From an uncultured Alphaproteobacteria bacterium (GTDB lineage: Bacteria > Pseudomonadota > Alphaproteobacteria > CAAGCB01 > CAG-977): a stretch of DNA of 64,000 nt. The translations under genes were made by a program, and so were the position numbers. Below the pieces are notes generated by a model. That model had not been told where the DNA came from. It saw only the letters and a list, made by a program, of their open reading frames with translations, and ran no database searches. The DNA is taken from positions 725-64,724 of the forward strand of contig CALXYE010000132.1 of NCBI GenBank assembly GCA_944392845.1, read 5' to 3'. This document shows, piece after piece, positions 4,466 to 62,465 of this stretch; the stretch's first letter is position 1; every line of letters begins with the position of its first letter.

Positions 4466-5464
4466 TTAATTCCTTAAAAATCCGATCGTGTCATAGACTT
4501 CGTTCAAAACGGGTTGAGCCAGCGCGTCGGCGCGTTCTCCGCCGTTTTTAAGAACGGAATCAATATAAGCCGTATCCTGCGCAATTTTGTGCATTTCCTT
4601 TGAAATCGGTTCCAATTCCGCGACGACGGCGTCCGTTAAGACTTTTTTGAAGCGCGAAAATTCTTGTCCGCCGACTTCTTTTAAGGCCTCTTCAGTCGTA
4701 ATGTCGCGGACGCCCGCATAAATATTAACCAGATTTAACGCTTCGGGGCGGCCTTCAAAGCCTTCGACCGTTTCGGGCAGGGGCATCGGGTCGGTCTTTG
4801 CCTTGCGAAATTTCAGCGCGATTGTGTCGGCGTCGTCCGACAGGTTGATGCGCGAGTAATCCGACGGGTCGGATTTGCTCATCTTTTTCGTCGCGTCGCG
4901 CAGGCTCATGACGCGGCGGGAAGTTCCCAACATTACGGGTTCGGGCAGAGGAAAAACATTGCATTTATAATCGTTGTTGAATTTGACGGCGATGTCGCGC
5001 GCCAGTTCCAGATGCTGGATCTGATCTTCGCCGACGGGGACTTTCGTCGCCTTATAAACCAAAATGTCCGCCGCCATCAGGCTGGGGTACGCGAACAAGC
5101 CCAAAGAAACGTTTTCACGGTTTTTTCCCGCTTTGTCCTTGAACTGGGTCATACGGCTCATCCATCCCATGCGGGCGACGCAATTCAAGACCCAGGCCAG
5201 CTCGGCATGGGCGGGAACGCGGCTTTGGTTAAACAGGATGTGCTTTTTCGGGTCCACGCCCGCCGCCAGCATACAGGCTGCGACTTCGTGAACGCTGCGA
5301 ATCAGCTCGGCAGGCTCCTTAAAGATCGTTATGGCGTGCATGTCAACGACGCAGTAAATGCATTCGTAACCGCTTTGAAGTTTTACCCAGTTGCGAATAG
5401 CGCCCAGATAATTGCCTAAATGAAGGTTTCCCGTGGGTTGAGCCCCTGAAAAGATGCGTTCCAT
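4466..5464 (-). CDS. trpS: Tryptophan--tRNA ligase
   Basis: Class I aaRS HIGH-type motif ([11 protein letters not shown]) and KMSKS. Confidence 0.95.
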
Positions 5465-5508: not shown

Positions 5509-7104
5509 TCAACCGCGCCGCCGCGCAAGCAGACTTTTTATTTCCTGTAGTTTCACGCCGCCCGTGACGAGTACGAGCATTCCGAAAACGGCGGCGCCCG
5601 CGCCGATCAGCCCGCCGAGCAAAAGGTAACGCCGCATTCCTTCCTCATGCGGCCATAAGGGGAAGAAAAGCAACGTTTGCGCATAAGCAAAGCGGACGAG
5701 CCCCCCCATTGCAAGGGAAGAAATTAAGATTGAAAGGGCGCGGCGGCGAAATTTGGCGTCGGTTTTATGCAATCCGCGCTTTTTGATAAGGAAAAGATAT
5801 TGAAAGACGTTCAGCCACGCGACAATCCCCGTTGCCAGGGCGATTCCCAGATAGCTCATGACGGGCAGGAGGAGCAGGCACAAAACGATATAAGAAACCA
5901 AAGCGGCGGCGGCAATACGTACGGGAGTCGCCGTATCTCCGCGGGCATAAAACGCGGGCGCAAGGGCTTTCGTCAGGATGTAAGCGGGCAATCCGACGGC
6001 ATAAGCGGACAGCGCCAGCCCCGTTTTGACGGCGGCATCCGTTGAAAAGGCGCCGCGCTCAAACAAAACGGCGATGACGGGAACGTTTAAAGCAATCAGC
6101 CCCGCGGCGGCGGGCAGGGAAAGCAACAGAGCCGTTTCAAGGGCACGGTTCATGCTTTCGCGGGCGGCGGCTTCGTCGTTTGATTTCAGCTGTCGGCTTA
6201 AAACGGGCAAAAGAACCGTGCCGATGGCCGCGCCGATGATGCCGACGGGCAGCTGATACAAACGATTGGCGTAATACAGCCAGGATACCGCTCCCGTGGA
6301 CAGAAAGGAAACGAACAGCGTATCCAAGAACAGGTTGATCTGATAAATTCCCGAACCGAACACTCCGGGCAGGATGCGCTTCATGAGCAGGGACACTTCT
6401 TCGGATTTGTTTTTGACGACGGCTTTTAAAGACATCAGGCCCAAGGGCAGCCCCGCCCGCCGCGTATGCCAAATCAGCCACAACAGCTGTAAAACGCCCG
6501 CGACGGTTACGCCCAGGGACAGGGCATAAGCGCAGTTGCCGCCGAACAGGGGCGTGAAAGCGAACAAGGCCGCGATCATTGTCAGGTTCAGCAAGGTCGG
6601 TGTCAAAGCGGCGGCGGCGAATTTCCCGACGGAGTTCAGCATCCCGCTTTGCAGGGAATTAAGCGATACCAGCAACAGGTAAGGGAAGGTGATGCGCGAC
6701 ATCAAAACGGCGGCTTCGGTTTTCGCGGGATCTTTGATGAAACCGGGAGCCTGAACGATAACGACGAACGGCATGAATATTTCCATCAACGCCGTAAAAA
6801 GCAGGACGACGTAAAACAGGCAGGAAAAGGCTTCTTCGGCGAATTTTAGGGCTTTTTCGCGGTTTCGGGTTTCCAGCATTTCCGAAAACAGCGGCACGAA
6901 GGCAACGTTGAAAGCCCCTTCGGCGAACAGGCTGCGGAACAGGTTGGGCAGCTTGAAGGCGACGAAAAAAGCATCGGCCAACATACCCGCGCCCAAAAAT
7001 TTGGCAATCAGCACGTCGCGGATGAAGCCCGTTACGCGGCTGACCATGGTAAAGCCTCCCACGGCGGCGATGGATCTAACCAGCGAGTTCTGCGAAAAAG
7101 CCAT
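5509..7104 (-). CDS. murJ: Lipid II flippase MurJ/MviN
   Basis: ~530 aa, 14 TM segments. Canonical MurJ N-terminus MAFSQNSLVRSIAAVGGFTMVSRVTGFIRDVLIAKFLGAG. Start taken at the internal ATG (7104) rather than the ORF-track start at 7236. Confidence 0.9.
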   Translation of the reverse strand: MAFSQNSLVRSIAAVGGFTMVSRVTGFIRDVLIAKFLGAGMLADAFFVAFKLPNLFRSLFAEGAFNVAFVPLFSEMLETRNREKALKFAEEAFSCLFYVVLLFTALMEIFMPFVVIVQAPGFIKDPAKTEAAVLMSRITFPYLLLVSLNSLQSGMLNSVGKFAAAALTPTLLNLTMIAALFAFTPLFGGNCAYALSLGVTVAGVLQLLWLIWHTRRAGLPLGLMSLKAVVKNKSEEVSLLMKRILPGVFGSGIYQINLFLDTLFVSFLSTGAVSWLYYANRLYQLPVGIIGAAIGTVLLPVLSRQLKSNDEAAARESMNRALETALLLSLPAAAGLIALNVPVIAVLFERGAFSTDAAVKTGLALSAYAVGLPAYILTKALAPAFYARGDTATPVRIAAAALVSYIVLCLLLLPVMSYLGIALATGIVAWLNVFQYLFLIKKRGLHKTDAKFRRRALSILISSLAMGGLVRFAYAQTLLFFPLWPHEEGMRRYLLLGGLIGAGAAVFGMLVLVTGGVKLQEIKSLLARRRG

Positions 7105-9562
7105 TGATCGCGTCCAGTAAAGAAGTTTTAATCCGCGCCGTTTTTTCGGCGTCCGTGATTTTTTTGCCGTTTTTGTCGGTAACGTAAAACACGTCGACGA
7201 CCTTTGAACCATAAGTGTAAATGTGCGCCGACACAATATTTAAATCTGCCAAAGTCATCGCGCGCGTGACGGCGTGCAGAAAACCGACGGCGTCCGAAGC
7301 GTTGATTTCGATCAGCGTACAGGAATTTGACGCCGTATCGTCAATCAGGACGCGGGGGTCGCTCCAAAAGGCTTTGCGGACGATTTTTTTGCTTTTCAGC
7401 TCTTTTTCAACGGCCGCGGTATCGGCGGAGCGGATTTTTTCTCGGATGCGGGCGATTTTTTTCGCCGAAGCGACGGGGCGGCGCGCGCCGTTGTCCAGCG
7501 TATCCGTTTCCTGTATTAAAAACGTGTCCAAAGCCATCCCGTTTTTCAATGTCATGATCTGCGCTTCGGCGACGGAAACGTTTTCCAAAGCTAAAATCCC
7601 CGTGATTTTTGCGAACAGGCCGTCTTCGTCGGGCGCCCAAACGGTCAGAGAGGTAACGCCCTTTTCTTCGTCGGTTTCGACGGCAAATGACGGTTCGCGC
7701 GACGGCGGCAATTCCGCCAGCCTTTTTTGAGCTTCGGTCAACGGACGGGGGCGGTCTTCGTTGCCTTGAATGCGTTCCAAAGCCGCTTCAAACAAGGTTT
7801 TTAAAAGTTGCTCCTTGAATCCGTTCCAAACGTTCGGCCCGACGGCGCGAATGTCGGCTTCGGTCAACGCGTATAACAGGCGCAACCGTTCGGGAGATTG
7901 GACTTCGGCAACGAAATCGTCCAACGTTTTCGGATCGAATACGTCGCGCTTGAACGCCGTGTGCGACATCAGCAAATGGTTTTCAACCAGCCAAACGGCG
8001 GTGTCCGTTTCTTCGCCGCTCATTCCCAAATCGCGGCAAACTTCTTTTGCAATGACGGCGCCTTTTCGGGCGTGGTCGCCGCCCCGCCCCTTTGCGATGT
8101 CGTGCAGCAATCCCGCGGTCAGCAGGCTTTTCCCCGACTGCGAGGCTTTTGCCGCATCGTAAAGAAAGCCTGCGGTTTTAAACGTATGTTCGTCCGTCGT
8201 ATAGACGTGATACAGGTCGAATTGAACCTGTCCCGTTATTTTTCCGAAAGCGGGGATCAGCACATTCAAAACGCCGGCTTCGTTCATGCGGCGCAACGAG
8301 CTTTCGGGACGGAATCCCGTTAATATTTTAAAAAACAGGGAACGGATAACGTCCGTTTTTCTCAAAGGGCGCAGTAAATGCGCGCTTTTTCCGAGCTTTT
8401 CCGTCAGGGCGGGGGAAAACGGCAGATCCAGACGGGCTTTCAGGTCGAACGCCCGTAAAATCGCGGCGGGGTCGTCGGCAAAAGAAAACCCGTTTTTAAT
8501 ATCTAAACGGCCGTTTCTGACGATAAAAGCGGGATCTTCCGTCGGCTTCTCGGTATTTTGCCGTCCGTCTGCAAAATCTTCGATAACGGAAATGACCAGT
8601 TCCGACAATTCGGCAACCTTGCGCGATACCAGATAATAGTGCTTCATAAAGCGTTCAACGGCGGAACAGCCCGCGCGTCGGGCGTAACCCGTCCGTTCGG
8701 CGATTTCCTTTTGGGCTTCCAGCGTCAAAACGTCGCCCGCCTTTCCCGATAACAGGTGCAAATGGCAACGCACCGTCGCCAAAAAGCGGTGAGCCTTCAG
8801 GAACCGTCCGACCGTTTCGGGAGTCAGCAACTCCCTGCGGATCAGATCGGGCATTTCCGCCGTTCCGAAAAAGTATTTCGTCAGCCAGAACGCCAAATGC
8901 AAATCGCGCAGTCCGCCGCGTCCTTCCTTTATGTTCGGCTCCAGCATATATTTTGAACCGCCCGTTTTTTTCAGGCGTTCTTCGCGTTCTTTCAGCTTGG
9001 CGTTTAAAAAAGCCCGCGCATCCGAAGTTTTTCGCAATTCTTCGTATCGGGCGGCAAAATCGTCAAACAATCGCCGTTTGCCGCAAACAAAACGCGCTTC
9101 CAAAAAAGCGGTGCGGGTTTCGATATCCGTTTTCGCGCGTTCAATCCGTTCTTCGGGCGTACCGACGGAAGAACCGACTTTGACGCCCGCGTCCCAAAGC
9201 AGGTAAAGGATGAAGGAAACGGCCGACTGCGTACGTTCGTTTTTATCGTCTTCGGTCAAAAACAACAGGTCCGTATCCGAATAGGGCGCCAGCTCTTTTC
9301 TGCCGTATCCGCCGACGGCGCAGATTGCCAGATCGGGGCGTTCGGCAGAGGGGAAGACGTCGCCGAAAACAAGGTCGTAAAGTGCCGAAAACAAAGCGTC
9401 GGTCGCGTCCGCGCGGTCAAATTCGGCAAGCAGGCCGTCATGCGGCGGACGATTCAGCGCGACCTTCATCCGTTCGCGCGCGGCGTTCAGTTCGGCTTTG
9501 ACCGCCTCCAATAAAGCGGCGCGCCCGCCCGTTTCCCATGCCTGTTTCAGTTCCGCGGCCAT
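7076..9562 (-). CDS. glnD: [Protein-PII] uridylyltransferase/uridylyl-removing enzyme
   Basis: Nucleotidyltransferase motif GGYGRKELAPYSDTDLLFL, an HD domain (LLHDIAKGRGGDH) and C-terminal ACT repeats. Confidence 0.9.
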   Translation of the reverse strand: MAAELKQAWETGGRAALLEAVKAELNAARERMKVALNRPPHDGLLAEFDRADATDALFSALYDLVFGDVFPSAERPDLAICAVGGYGRKELAPYSDTDLLFLTEDDKNERTQSAVSFILYLLWDAGVKVGSSVGTPEERIERAKTDIETRTAFLEARFVCGKRRLFDDFAARYEELRKTSDARAFLNAKLKEREERLKKTGGSKYMLEPNIKEGRGGLRDLHLAFWLTKYFFGTAEMPDLIRRELLTPETVGRFLKAHRFLATVRCHLHLLSGKAGDVLTLEAQKEIAERTGYARRAGCSAVERFMKHYYLVSRKVAELSELVISVIEDFADGRQNTEKPTEDPAFIVRNGRLDIKNGFSFADDPAAILRAFDLKARLDLPFSPALTEKLGKSAHLLRPLRKTDVIRSLFFKILTGFRPESSLRRMNEAGVLNVLIPAFGKITGQVQFDLYHVYTTDEHTFKTAGFLYDAAKASQSGKSLLTAGLLHDIAKGRGGDHARKGAVIAKEVCRDLGMSGEETDTAVWLVENHLLMSHTAFKRDVFDPKTLDDFVAEVQSPERLRLLYALTEADIRAVGPNVWNGFKEQLLKTLFEAALERIQGNEDRPRPLTEAQKRLAELPPSREPSFAVETDEEKGVTSLTVWAPDEDGLFAKITGILALENVSVAEAQIMTLKNGMALDTFLIQETDTLDNGARRPVASAKKIARIREKIRSADTAAVEKELKSKKIVRKAFWSDPRVLIDDTASNSCTLIEINASDAVGFLHAVTRAMTLADLNIVSAHIYTYGSKVVDVFYVTDKNGKKITDAEKTARIKTSLLDAINGFFAELAG

Positions 9563-43500: not shown

Positions 43501-44070
43501 TCAAACGGCTGAAACGATTTTTTCCGCGGCATCGGTTTCATTCAAAGATTTTTTGAACAATTCCTCAAGACGTTCTTTCCGTAATCCCGTTGCGGCGGAT
43601 AAAGCGCCGATATGTTCCGCGTTTCCCGCTTTCAACGGGGAATAATTAAACAAGACGTAGCGGCGTATTTCCGAGATTTTATTAAATTTGTTCCGTTCGG
43701 CTTGCGTCATGTCGGTTTTTTCCATTTCCACATAGACGGAATCAGGCGAATATCGCCATACGCCGTTTGATAAAAAATCGGTTGTCCAACTATACAAAGC
43801 CGACAGGTTAATAATGCTGACGGGATTAATTTGTGAGGTTAAAACGGCCGTTGCGTCTTCGTATCCGCTCTTTTTCAGAACGATGACGGTGTTGCTTTGA
43901 CTGCGCTTTAAGTCGATCGCGCAGGGGGTGCTGCACATAGGCATGCCGTTAACGTACACTTTTGCTTTGGGAACGTTTGCGTTGACGGTTATATTTTGCC
44001 GTGTTCCCGAGAAAATCGTTCCGCATCCTGACAGGGTTAGGATTCCCAAAAAAAGAAGTAAAGATTTCAT
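43501..44070 (-). CDS. Lipoprotein (possible PEGA-like beta domain), unknown function
   Basis: Signal peptide plus lipobox LSGC. KAKVYVNGMPMCSTPC resembles PEGA. AT-rich coding DNA. Confidence 0.45.
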   Translation of the reverse strand: MKSLLLFLGILTLSGCGTIFSGTRQNITVNANVPKAKVYVNGMPMCSTPCAIDLKRSQSNTVIVLKKSGYEDATAVLTSQINPVSIINLSALYSWTTDFLSNGVWRYSPDSVYVEMEKTDMTQAERNKFNKISEIRRYVLFNYSPLKAGNAEHIGALSAATGLRKERLEELFKKSLNETDAAEKIVSAV

Positions 44071-44484
44071 GGCTTCTCCTTAAAAAAGCGTTCAATGAAC
44101 CAAAACCGCCGTAAAAGGCGGTCGGAGAGTTCAGAAATCATACAATGAGAATGATCGTTTTGACCTTTAATCCTTCAGAGATACAGCCGAAGAATCTGAA
44201 CATACGTCAAAACCTCCCCGACCATATCGCATGGAATCGGGGATATAATTCCGTTTTAAAACGGATTGACGGCGTTTATATCGACGCCGCTCATTGTAAG
44301 AGCTTCTGACGGCTCCGCGCCCGAGGGGCACTTGATGCCGAAACATCCGATTAAAAATAATAACAGCTTCGGAACAGATGTAAACAGTTGATTAAAGCCA
44401 TGCGAAAACGCCTTTTTTCAAAGAGTCGGGTTGTAAATCCCAAACGATTCCTGTAACATTCCCGCGCAAAAGGAAAAGGGACGA

Positions 44485-49535: not shown

Positions 49536-49952
49536 ATGGGTAAAATCGCTCGTCCTTACGCGTGGACGGTAGATATTTTACGGCGCGCCAATTTGCGTCC
49601 GACGCGTCAGCGTATGGGATTGGTACGTTTATTGTTTGAAAACGGGCATCGTCACGTTTCTGCCGAGGAGTTATACAAGGAAGCCTGTCGGAACGGGTTG
49701 GATTTGTCTTTGGCGACGGTTTATAATACATTGAACCAGTTTAAGGAACTGGGGATCATGCGCGAGATCGTTACGGGCGGGGAATGCTCTTTTTTTGATA
49801 CGAACACGGCGCCTCACGGCCATATATTTTATGAGCAAAGCGGCAGAGTTGAAGACATATCGGACGATATGCTTTCCGTTCAAACGTTACCGGGGTTTCC
49901 GTCGCACTTGGACATATCGGGCATTGAGATCGTCATCCGCGTCAGGGGATGA
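49536..49952 (+). CDS. Fur-family transcriptional regulator, Irr-like (iron response regulator)
   Basis: LRPTRQRMGLVRLL winged-helix segment. No C-terminal Cys metal site but a HGH His cluster, as in Irr. Sits in an AT-rich neighbourhood. Confidence 0.7.
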   Translation: MGKIARPYAWTVDILRRANLRPTRQRMGLVRLLFENGHRHVSAEELYKEACRNGLDLSLATVYNTLNQFKELGIMREIVTGGECSFFDTNTAPHGHIFYEQSGRVEDISDDMLSVQTLPGFPSHLDISGIEIVIRVRG

Positions 49953-50310
49953 GTTTTTTTATCGCTTAAAGAAACATCGAAAAGATCCGAAAGCTCCCTT
50001 TATTTCGTTATTCGTTAAAAGGGGAAGAGGGAATTTAAATCCCCCTCAGACGTTAAAAAGGCGGGTATGTTCCGAAAGTTATTTTCTTAACGTGCCGAAA
50101 TTGTTTTTAAAAATTTTCGGATGCATGCCTTTTCGCGGCGGGTATCCGAATTTTTATACGCTTTTGAAATATAACGACATTTCTTTCTCCTTACTTTTAG
50201 GAAAGTGAAATAAACCGCTTAATAAATCCGATTGCAAAATCTTTCGGTTTTGATAGTGTGTTTAAGGAACGGTATCTGCCGTTCAGGGCGTCAGAAACCC
50301 TTTCAGAGAT

Positions 50311-50471
50311 AGTCGCTTTGCATAAGCGACTTTAAAAATAGTTATGCCGATTTCTGCTCCGTGCGGGCGGATGTCGGCTGAATACGGCTATCCGCCCAAT
50401 AGGTCGAGCCGTATATCTCTGTACGGTTTCTGAACATCCGCCCACCTTATTTTTTAAGGTGGGTTTTGTTT
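50311..50471 (+). promoter_or_regulatory. Candidate cis-regulatory leader RNA with mutually exclusive antiterminator/terminator structures, upstream of the lipoprotein gene
   Basis: Hairpin 50311-50331 (8-bp perfect). GGGCGGAUG (50365-73) can pair with UAUCCGCCC (50389-97) or with CAUCCGCCC (50435-43). The latter overlaps the 5' arm of the terminator CCACCUU-7nt-AAGGUGG + GUUUUGUUU (50442-71). Confidence 0.45.
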
Positions 50472-50499
50472 AACCAAAAAAACAAAAGGACGTTCGGAA

Positions 50500-50910
50500 A
50501 TGAAAAAATTTCTTTTTTCGGCTTTGTTAGCCGTTTCTTTGTCAGCATGCGCATCTTTGACAAGGATGGAAGAAAACCAACTCAGGGAATTGAAAACTTA
50601 CGGTATCAGCGTTGATAAACCGACGGGATATTGGGAAAAACCCGCAAGCCCGTTAGCAGCGGGAATGTTGAACCTTCTGCCCGGGGTCGGGAATTTTTAT
50701 CTGGGAGTGGGCAACGGTTCCGACGGAGCGCAGGTTCTGTACGGATTTTTAAACCTGTTGTTTTGGCCCGCATCCATATTATGGGGGATTCCCGAAGCCG
50801 CGATAGATGCCGGTACGATCAATGAGCGCGAGCTGTTATACTACTACGCTTATGATCCGAACGGCAAACGCGAACTTGAAGAAGCTCGGAAAAAATTCGG
50901 GAAAAAATAA
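50500..50910 (+). CDS. Lipoprotein with TM2-like Gly-rich domain
   Basis: Lipobox LSAC and RBS AAGGA. LLPGVGNFYLGVGNGSDG ... LLFWPASILWGI resembles the TM2 domain. Confidence 0.5.
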   Translation: MKKFLFSALLAVSLSACASLTRMEENQLRELKTYGISVDKPTGYWEKPASPLAAGMLNLLPGVGNFYLGVGNGSDGAQVLYGFLNLLFWPASILWGIPEAAIDAGTINERELLYYYAYDPNGKRELEEARKKFGKK

Positions 50911-62389: not shown

Positions 62390-62465
62390 GCCGCAGTAGC
62401 TCAGCTGGTAGAGCAACGCATTCGTAATGCGTGGGTCGGGAGTTCAAATCTCTCCTGCGGCACCA
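62390..62465 (+). tRNA. tRNA-Thr (anticodon CGU)
   Basis: Cloverleaf folded by hand. 7-bp acceptor GCCGCAG/CUGCGGC, D-arm GCUC/GAGC, anticodon stem ACGCA/UGCGU with loop UUCGUAA, T-arm GGGAG-UUCAAAU-CUCUC. CCA is encoded. Confidence 0.9.

Follow-up and report, generated by a model that had tools for sequence, protein, structure and literature searches.

What is encoded in the 547 nucleotides (nt) that separate a Fur-family regulator gene from a small lipoprotein gene in the genome of an uncultured alphaproteobacterium? The spacer lies in a 64,000-nt stretch of contig CALXYE010000132.1, the whole of which we refer to as the window, and an earlier note on this DNA had flagged positions 50311-50499 as a structured leader with mutually exclusive pairings, namely a candidate riboswitch, attenuator or small RNA (sRNA). 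Folding and comparison of relatives uphold the view that this leader or sRNA is conserved and structured and that its pairings exclude one another. The element itself is thus real, and only its extent needs correction, because it reaches ~100 nt farther on the 5' side and the flagged stretch is its 3' half. Judging from its sequence and those of its relatives, we consider it probable that the element is a domesticated, cis-encoded antisense and decoy switch of the C4/Xcc1 type that serves the lipoprotein gene, and not a known riboswitch class.

The folding check that had been proposed for the flagged interval finds it far more stable than dinucleotide shuffles. The minimum free energy (MFE) of positions 50300-50480 is -76 kcal/mol against -43.3 +/- 4.3 kcal/mol for 200 such shuffles (z -7.67), and that of positions 50266-50515 is -104.2 kcal/mol against -63.2 +/- 4.6 kcal/mol for shuffles (z -8.98). 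Given these z values, the structured element is real and not a product of chance. The inverted repeats I12, I17, I23 and I24 returned by a repeat finder are those named in the earlier note, and the strings it had picked out are all present, as read from the sequence:

50311-18/50324-31, plus strand: 8-bp perfect hairpin, AGTCGCTT/AAGCGACT (repeat I23).
50365-73, plus strand: GGGCGGATG, the strand with two candidate partners.
50389-97, plus strand: TATCCGCCC, the first candidate partner.
50435-43, plus strand: CATCCGCCC, the second candidate partner.

The gene that follows the element is the candidate for regulation and defines the set of relatives with which the element can be compared:

50500-50910, plus strand: 136-amino-acid (aa) lipoprotein with the lipobox LSAC, from the open reading frame (ORF) list.

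This protein belongs to no Pfam or NCBIfam family beyond its lipoprotein signal, and its AlphaFold2 (AF2) model is all-helical (predicted local distance difference test, pLDDT, 82); the label "TM2-like" that had been given to it is unsupported, since there is neither a Pfam TM2 match nor a TM2-like fold. Its homologs (137 entries of the protein database, and 186 relatives from genomes of GTDB) occur only in metagenome-assembled genomes of uncultured gut Alphaproteobacteria, filed under Alphaproteobacteria, "Acetobacter sp. CAG:977", Candidatus Enterousia and Scatocola. Collecting the orthologous upstream regions, as had been suggested, reveals a conserved leader with covarying helices. Among 80 species-level loci around the lipoprotein gene, which form our comparison set, about 60 carry a recognisable homologous leader, and the lipoprotein homologs that have it are 55-83% identical. 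A covariance model built from 57 distinct cores, designated R1, yields 65 matches 5' of lipoprotein genes in the 80 loci, all on the same strand and ending ~40-60 nt before the start codon, and a few further matches elsewhere; the core in the window scores 77.9 bits.

The conserved center of the leader is a three-way junction closed by stem P1, in which the second of the two candidate partners is used:

50365-50443, plus strand: core three-way junction (RNAalifold, covariation, model R1 and the alignment to the sRNA-Xcc1 model RF02221).
50365-73/50435-43, plus strand: stem P1.
50374-78/50403-07, plus strand: stem P2, with AAUA-containing internal loops.
50408-13/50422-27, plus strand: stem P3, with the loop b' at 50414-21.
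50426-35, plus strand: junction J3/1, the strand a'.

In an alignment of the 57 distinct core sequences, 94.7% of the cells are paired, compared with 73.2% in shuffles, not one of 500 reaching the real value, and 34-49% with slid partners; 14 of the 16 pairs show changes on both sides. The AAUA motifs in the internal loops of P2 and an AAC before the 3' strand of P1 are conserved and unpaired. Stem P1 itself occurs in the family as GGGCGGAUG/CAUCCGCCC, GACUGGAAG/CUUCCAGUC, GUCGGGGAG/CUCCCCGGC, GGUUGGAAG/CUUCCAACC and other variants. At its third pair (columns 5/111 of alignment A2, window positions 50367/50441), 16-17 members have an A.C mismatch (GGACGGAUG/CAUCCGCCC) where the window has G-C; this mismatch might be a wobble pair with a protonated base, or might serve to weaken P1 on purpose.

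Upstream of the core lies a 5' domain whose loops reach back into it:

50267-84, plus strand: hairpin P-1, GAACGGU/GCCGUUC, which opens the RNA on its 5' side; part of the MFE structure.
50286-50300, plus strand: hairpin P0, GGG/CCC, whose loop is a1, UCAGAAA, at 50291-97 and extendable to 50299.
50291-97 with 50426-35, plus strand: pseudoknot PK1 between a1 and a' (cofold -12.8 kcal/mol).
50304-11 with 50414-21, plus strand: pseudoknot PK2 between b1, CAGAGAUA, and b', UAUCUCUG, in the P3 loop (cofold -10.4 kcal/mol).
50311-50331, plus strand: hairpin P0b, the perfect hairpin listed above.
50346-59, plus strand: Alt-5' strand, GCCGAU and UCUGCUC, which pairs with the 5' strands of P1 (50365-71) and P2 (50373-78).

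By eye, relatives have a hairpin at the place of P-1 that differs in sequence, and the stem of P0 shows compensatory variants (GGG/CCC, GAGG/CCUC, GGAGA/UCUCC and CGGAA/UUCCG). Hairpin P0b is present with altered stems in most relatives of the GGRCGGAUG type and missing from a short variant (L013/L014 type). The pairing of a1 with a' is recovered by an unconstrained best-duplex search in nearly all of 63 units of the family, which contain 24 distinct a1 sequences. Because loop lengths vary, PK2 was tested by an alignment-free positional test and not by column covariation: in 51 of the 63 distinct units, the strongest pairing that the P3 region can make within the upstream 125 nt begins -1 to 8 nt after a1, and b1 has 43 distinct sequences in those 51 units (binomial P ~4e-35).

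The Alt hairpin appears in the MFE structure of both folded intervals and in 63 of 63 units, with a free energy of -9 to -24 kcal/mol, a mean z of -3.4 against shuffles and covarying sequences. As Alt captures the 5' strand of P1, and often that of P2 as well, it excludes P1. The conserved competitor of P1 is thus this hairpin with 50346-59 and not, as had been proposed, the string at 50389-97; pairing of 50365-73 with 50389-97 is the MFE structure of the isolated core here, yet as a family feature it was rejected, being confined to the window and its two closest relatives (L001 and L002). The three-way-junction core, the two pseudoknots and the hairpin that competes with P1 are therefore supported by covariation, several helix assignments outside the core having been made by alignment-free tests and reading by eye. 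A 30-codon ORF from the ATG at 50344 was also considered as a leader peptide and set aside: it is not conserved, and by eye the relatives show compensatory changes of the RNA type.

What might such an RNA act upon? The nearest candidate is the translation initiation region of the lipoprotein gene, with its Shine-Dalgarno (SD) sequence:

50486-50502, plus strand: translation initiation region, with the SD AAGGA (GGA at 50488-90), the site a2, GUUCGGAAAU, at 50492-501 and the ATG at 50500.

The region from the SD to the AUG is complementary to a' and the start of the 3' strand of P1 (50426-39); a cofold of 50424-43 with 50484-503 gives -16.7 kcal/mol, and a duplex between the core strand and the SD-to-AUG region is present in most units. 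The fourth SD base covaries with the 3' strand of P1: strands of the form xAUCC accompany the SD GGAU (17 cases) or GGAC (9), xUUCC accompanies GGAA (16), and xUCCC, xUCUC or CCUCC accompanies GGAG (at least 11). Since the SD tracks the P1 variant, the 3' end of the 5' strand of P1 (GGAUG, GGAAG or GGGAG) copies the real SD, and the 3' strand (CAUCC here) is an anti-SD. Moreover, in 27 of 58 units a stretch of 5 nt or more is common to a1 and a2. This pairing of the core 3' strand with the SD-to-AUG region is the strongest regulatory signal in the sequences and points to translational control. The attenuator geometry proposed earlier accordingly holds in part: competing pairings do touch the terminator, as described below, whereas the strongest signal points to translation and not to termination.

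The boundaries of the RNA are predicted from a promoter-like site and from an intrinsic terminator:

50232-59, plus strand: promoter-like site, with a -35 TTGCAA at 50232-37, a 16-nt spacer that holds TG at 50251-52, and a -10 TAGTGT at 50254-59.
50441-49/50455-63, plus strand: intrinsic terminator stem, CCCACCTTA/TAAGGTGGG, followed by TTTTGTTT, with a U-tract to ~50471 (terminator scan).

The candidate promoter matches the consensus at 8 of 12 positions, the scan threshold being 9, and relatives have TTGCAT, TTGACA or TTGCAA together with TAnnnT at an equal distance 5' of the first hairpin. Transcription would start at ~50265-66 and give an RNA of ~206 nt, from ~50266 to the U-tract at ~50471. 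The terminator at 50441-63 is ranked first by the terminator scan (10 pairs, 5 G-C), and its three basal nucleotides (CCC, 50441-43) are common to the 3' strand of P1. The earlier claim that P1 consumes nucleotides of the terminator base is borne out by an overlap of 2-3 nt in every sequence variant of the family. Also confirmed in the sequence is the position of the terminator 28 nt 5' of the lipoprotein start codon, with the SD AAGGA and the ATG at 50500; a gap of 28 nt leaves no room for a separate lipoprotein promoter.

The same module occurs a second time in the window, on the other strand and in front of another lipoprotein gene:

~44099-44331, minus strand: second, paralogous module (R1 match at 44117-44224, minus strand, 29 bits, E 3e-4; parts read from the sequence).
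44299-44316, minus strand: P0 of copy 2, with the loop a1 GUCAGAAG.
44290-98, minus strand: b1 of copy 2, UACAAUGAG.
44237-43, minus strand: Alt-5' of copy 2.
44214-22/44121-29, minus strand: P1 of copy 2.
44141-49, minus strand: b' of copy 2.
44105-22, minus strand: terminator of copy 2.
43501-44070, minus strand: PEGA lipoprotein gene (PEGA domain, E 1.3e-8), with the module 46 nt upstream.

In copy 2, a1 with a' and b1 with b' are mutually matched. The RNA also lies 5' of genes for PEGA homologs (56-78% identity) on five of the six contigs fetched (L209-L213); a query with the PEGA lipoprotein against metagenomes had returned one weak relative only, and these contexts were found by protein search and contig look-up. 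On one of these contigs (L213, 924-1034) a further unit lies 5' of an Acyl_transf_3 gene. In a genome whose small-lipoprotein gene is leaderless (L081), complete units at 4475-4545 and 7078-7156, both on the minus strand, precede a gene pair for proteins of 113 and 404 aa and the operon of a 369-aa Cys-rich secreted protein; secreted proteins of unknown function are thus among those encoded 3' of the RNA. A weak NCBIfam match (E 1.9e-5, far under the cut-off) links the 113-aa protein to alpha-xenorhabdolysin subunit A. Every unit shares its strand with the gene that comes next and has its terminator a few tens of nt 5' of the SD, and the leader arrangement recurs before at least five unrelated gene families. 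Two loci hold additional copies: at L013 two complete units stand in tandem, each with promoter and terminator, and at L034 (2626-2708) a core-only copy consisting of P1-P3 directly follows the upstream gene's stop codon, 240 nt before a complete unit, without the 5' domain and with a degenerate terminator.

These arrangements bear on a rival explanation, namely that the RNA (~206 nt, or ~107 nt if processed) is a stand-alone, trans-acting sRNA whose main targets lie elsewhere and whose position at the lipoprotein gene reflects synteny. Its own promoter-like site and strong terminator, the tandem complete units and the core-only copy would suit such an RNA, as would the detection of sRNA-Xcc1 as an abundant, discrete RNA in Xanthomonas and enterohemorrhagic Escherichia coli (EHEC) and the fact that in most units b' finds nothing to pair with at the downstream gene. 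Set against this, the gap of 10-25 nt between terminator and SD at the downstream genes leaves no room for a promoter, the downstream SD and spacer covary with the RNA, the same arrangement precedes the unrelated families enumerated above, and leaderless homologs more often carry canonical GGAG SDs (by eye). We judge a purely trans-acting role improbable. The alternative offered in the earlier note, a small RNA that ends at the terminator, nevertheless comes near to the cis-encoded antisense and decoy switch that we favor.

To which known RNAs is the element related? Rfam scans of the whole window with Infernal, at gathering and E-value thresholds, return only a transfer RNA (tRNA), a weak sRNA-Xcc1 match and a chance-level Phe_leader-like match, and no T-box, riboswitch or leader family. 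The earlier statement that no known riboswitch class, T-box or leader-peptide attenuator is recognisable thus agrees with these scans, and at the element itself there is no match at gathering level, sRNA-Xcc1 alone being notable and sub-threshold. The tRNA gene lies at 62390-62462 on the plus strand, and the weak Phe_leader-like match at 214-303 on the minus strand (30 bits, E 0.51) is probably due to chance. In one relative (L013, 605-762), a T-box match of 38.9 bits falls below the cut-off of 93.

The sRNA-Xcc1 model RF02221 aligns over its full length (1-87 of 87) to the window with 36.3 bits (E 1.3e-4 on 701 nt, 0.012 on 64 kb). Its gathering cut-off is 53 bits, and by the Rfam criterion the window element is not a member of RF02221. 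Full-length sub-threshold alignments are also found in seven of ten relatives tested (28.5-38.5 bits). For comparison, sRNA-Xcc1 from an E. coli prophage (L084, 2340-2585) scores 68.2 bits as a control, and genuine sRNA-Xcc1 is found more than 120 times in IMG/VR contigs (L085-L204), all 12 of the 12 checked scoring 55-87 bits. Conversely, R1 matches confirmed sRNA-Xcc1 members with 28-45 bits at the same coordinates.

The genuine sRNA-Xcc1 loci themselves contain more than the Rfam model describes. Their 5' domain has a hairpin loop a1 that pairs with J3/1, for example the loop of GGUG-CUCAAAA-CACC with GUUUUGAG, and after it a b1 of hypervariable sequence whose partner is the P3 loop. Among 72 such units, a stretch of 6 nt or more is common to b1 and b2 in 43 and to a1 and a2 in 38, with b2 abutting the SD. 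The genes 3' of genuine sRNA-Xcc1 encode antirepressor types (AntA, Bro-N, Rha, P22_AR_N, ORF6N and KilA-N), and published notes place sRNA-Xcc1 5' of symE in Xanthomonas integron cassettes and 5' of an ORF6N gene in APSE phage. Genuine sRNA-Xcc1 therefore appears to be the 3' core of a ~200-nt module, with a1 and b1 upstream and a2 and b2 at the ribosome-binding site (RBS), placed before antirepressor genes. In Xanthomonas, sRNA-Xcc1 was mapped as an 88-nt RNA (PMC2996969). RF02221 has 87 positions and begins at the first nucleotide of P1, and from this agreement in length we conclude, beyond what the paper says, that the mapped 5' end probably coincides with the start of P1. A BLAST search of plasmids with the Rfam Xcc1 consensus returned nothing, and the published EDL933 coordinate of sRNA-Xcc1, which was also followed up, has no correspondence in the RefSeq assembly, where hok/sok occupies that locus.

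A module of this layout is familiar from bacteriophage P1. In the GenBank record of that phage, promoter P1c4 is followed by a "putative a1 target site", a "putative b1 target site", the 77-nt c4 RNA, "target site a2", "target site b2" over the icd RBS, icd and ant1. C4 RNA has three stems, is freed by a ribonuclease P (RNase P) cut where the 5' strand of its P1 stem begins, and acts on its target through the loops a' and b', of which b' occludes the RBS (PMC5320573). The phage P1 control passes the C4 and c4-a1b1 models with 68.8 and 51 bits, and R1 gives only 9 bits on c4. Rfam unites C4 and c4-a1b1 in one clan, with sRNA-Xcc1 outside it. Just 5' of c4 in phage P1 (L207, 1024-1054), an ACGCCC that can pair with the c4 GGGCGU occupies the position of the Alt hairpin (by eye). 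On one viral contig (L120, 823-1603, minus strand), c4-a1b1/isrK, C4 and sRNA-Xcc1 stand in tandem on one strand within ~800 nt, which suggests stacked immunity RNA modules.

With these relatives in hand, a second rival can be weighed, namely that the element is a metabolite or ion riboswitch. The compact fold would then be the aptamer, and a ligand that stabilises P1, PK1 and PK2 would weaken the terminator base, free the RBS and turn on a regulon of envelope and exported proteins. A complex, conserved and pseudoknotted fold with mutually exclusive pairings and two states near in energy is what such a model expects, as are conserved unpaired AAUA and AAC motifs and an invariable placement directly 5' of genes, several unrelated ones per genome, as in a regulon. 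The variable positions tell a different story: b', b1, a' and a1 are hypervariable and covary with the target, as antisense specificity determinants do and a ligand pocket does not, and the positions that are invariant are largely explained by mimicry between SD and anti-SD. In addition, Rfam offers no matching riboswitch family, no shared metabolite is apparent from the genes downstream, and the nearest relatives are the phage antisense RNAs sRNA-Xcc1 and C4, whose logic is ligand-free. The ligand-controlled affinity first entertained for this locus is consequently unlikely, though in our estimation less so than the stand-alone sRNA.

How might an antisense and decoy switch of the C4/Xcc1 type work at the lipoprotein gene? 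The conservation of the leader, its covarying helices, their competing pairings and the association with the gene are observations; from them we infer a direction of regulation, processing by RNase P, an effect on termination and a trigger that moves the RNA between two folds. A sigma-70-like promoter would drive an RNA made up of a decoy domain (a1 and b1), the Alt strand, a tRNA-like three-way-junction core and the terminator. The lipoprotein RBS region, by repeating both the 3' end of the 5' strand of P1, as an SD mimic, and a1, as a2, could pair with the same core strand. In a compact fold, P1, P2, P3 and the pairings a1:a' and b1:b' would form, burying the anti-RBS strand and leaving the RBS free, and P1 would hold the terminator-closing nucleotides 50441-43, which would favor read-through. 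In an open fold, Alt would sequester the 5' strands of P1 and P2 and the full terminator would form; on any read-through RNA, the freed a' and anti-SD would pair with the SD-to-AUG region and block translation. A crude estimate puts the open fold at -73.8 kcal/mol and the compact fold at -53.3 kcal/mol for its nested part plus ~-23 kcal/mol for PK1 and PK2, such that the two folds may be near in energy.

By analogy with C4 and sRNA-Xcc1, RNase P may furthermore excise the core by cutting just before the first nucleotide of P1, between 50364 and 50365. Such a cut would remove a1, b1 and Alt and leave a stable antisense RNA that represses the same RBS region in trans. A cut at this point would fit the RCC that flanks P1 on the 3' side in 35 of 58 units of the family; in genuine sRNA-Xcc1 the corresponding flank is mostly ACCA, GCCC or CCCA.

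Several points weigh against this mechanism and the kinship on which it draws. The site b2, present in C4 and sRNA-Xcc1, is mostly missing from the family (found in 13 of 58 units) and absent from the window. The margin between cognate and non-cognate anti-RBS duplexes is modest, 7.5 against 6.3, and part of the anti-RBS lies inside P1, so that a processed RNA with P1 closed could use a' alone. The crude energy estimate takes for granted that the two pseudoknots fit sterically, although PK2 would require the 8-nt loop of P3 to be fully paired. Because P1 and the terminator overlap by just 2-3 nt, control of termination is uncertain, and if the terminator is efficient, the amount of read-through messenger RNA is doubtful. 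Finally, the RF02221 score of the window is below the cut-off (36.3 against 53 bits), and neither C4 (RF01695) nor c4-a1b1 (RF03163) gives a match at E<=10 in 49900-50600.

The genomic neighborhood addresses a last rival, in which the element is a decaying remnant of prophage immunity, or a mere terminator or insulator behind the fur-family gene, and regulates nothing today:

49536-49952: Fur-family regulator gene, the upstream neighbor (ORF list, family scan).

That the relatives are phage-borne, that the leader is lost at 14-18 of the 80 lipoprotein loci and that one copy is truncated would be expected of a remnant. Every helix, nevertheless, shows compensatory changes across lipoprotein homologs of the identity range given above, a covariation that indicates purifying selection on paired positions. 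Housekeeping genes (pnp, the fur-family gene, dut and truB) and not prophage genes surround the lipoprotein leader, an NMO-family gene and an SH3-domain gene being further neighbors, and the fur-family gene has a terminator-like hairpin of its own at 49933-52, which speaks against an insulator. We regard this explanation as very improbable, far below the two rivals already discussed. At three leaderless loci (L019, L032 and L033), the upstream regions retain a ribosome-binding region of the GGAUGUUC/GGACGU type and a CACGCCUUU remnant, which suggests that the leader was recently lost there.

The element is thus a chromosomal relative of sRNA-Xcc1 and C4 that has diverged from them, bears a terminator and is tied to envelope genes. 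A broader proposal, which we advance tentatively and hold to be possible rather than probable, is that it represents an undescribed chromosomal clade of the C4/Xcc1 type that works as a general two-state switch, in which the SD mimic, the anti-SD and the real SD compete and a1 and b1 serve as decoys, perhaps gated by RNase P or a ligand and governing a small regulon of lipoproteins and exported proteins in these gut bacteria; as a corollary, sRNA-Xcc1, which its Rfam annotation presents as a trans-acting sRNA linked to virulence, would form the center of an immI-like module governing antirepressors in many prophages. If true, a phage immunity design, antisense RNA with co-transcribed decoys, would have been co-opted for the chromosomal envelope genes of abundant uncultured gut bacteria. 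With the 87-nt model of RF02221 as a mere 3' core, its matches in pathogen and phage genomes would need another interpretation. The hypervariable, covarying pairs of loop and target also constitute a natural set of compensatory mutants.

Comparison with known systems places the family closest to sRNA-Xcc1. Both have a three-way junction closed by P1, a P2 with AAUA-rich internal loops, P3, J3/1 and an RCC 3' of P1; both also have the 5' domain with a1 and b1, which lies outside the Rfam model, and both are placed directly 5' of a gene. Whereas sRNA-Xcc1 was first described in integron cassettes of Xanthomonas campestris, is widespread in prophages, belongs to phages, integrons or plasmids and precedes antirepressor genes or symE, the family described here resides in a chromosomal housekeeping neighborhood of gut Alphaproteobacteria and precedes genes for lipoproteins and exported proteins. 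Unlike sRNA-Xcc1, its members have a true intrinsic terminator after the core, mostly lack b2, and carry an anti-SD within the 3' strand of P1 and an SD mimic in the 5' strand.

The C4/immI system of phages P1 and P7 shares with the window the order of promoter, a1, b1, core (with a' and b'), a2 and gene, b2 excepted, and also the spacing of a1, b1, core and a2. In C4, too, a1 lies upstream of b1 with few nt between them, the hypervariable loops covary with their targets, and nucleotides immediately before the core could, by eye, base-pair with P1 on its 5' side. The two differ in that the RBS is covered by b' in C4 and by a' and the anti-SD in the family described here; in that C4 targets icd/ant and this family other genes; and in that this family, unlike C4, has a terminator that separates the RNA from its target. 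In our incomplete coverage of the literature, we found no papers joining sRNA-Xcc1 to C4-type modules, which is not proof that the link is new.

A precedent for C4-type RNAs in a chromosome is provided by the 'Group 1' sRNAs of Acinetobacter baumannii, which have multiplied there, are processed from longer transcripts and have been proposed to be co-opted for host targets (PMC5320573). These RNAs differ from the present family in that they match the Rfam C4 motif and in that no fixed downstream target or SD covariation is reported for them (PMC5320573); the family described here is Xcc1-like and bound in cis to specific genes. Finally, riboswitch platforms and other leaders that sequester the RBS resemble this family in that mutually exclusive helices gate the terminator base and the SD and in that the leader lies directly 5' of the ORF. 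The family differs from riboswitch platforms in that no ligand is implied and the strands that switch imitate the target site as decoys, after the logic of antisense RNA.

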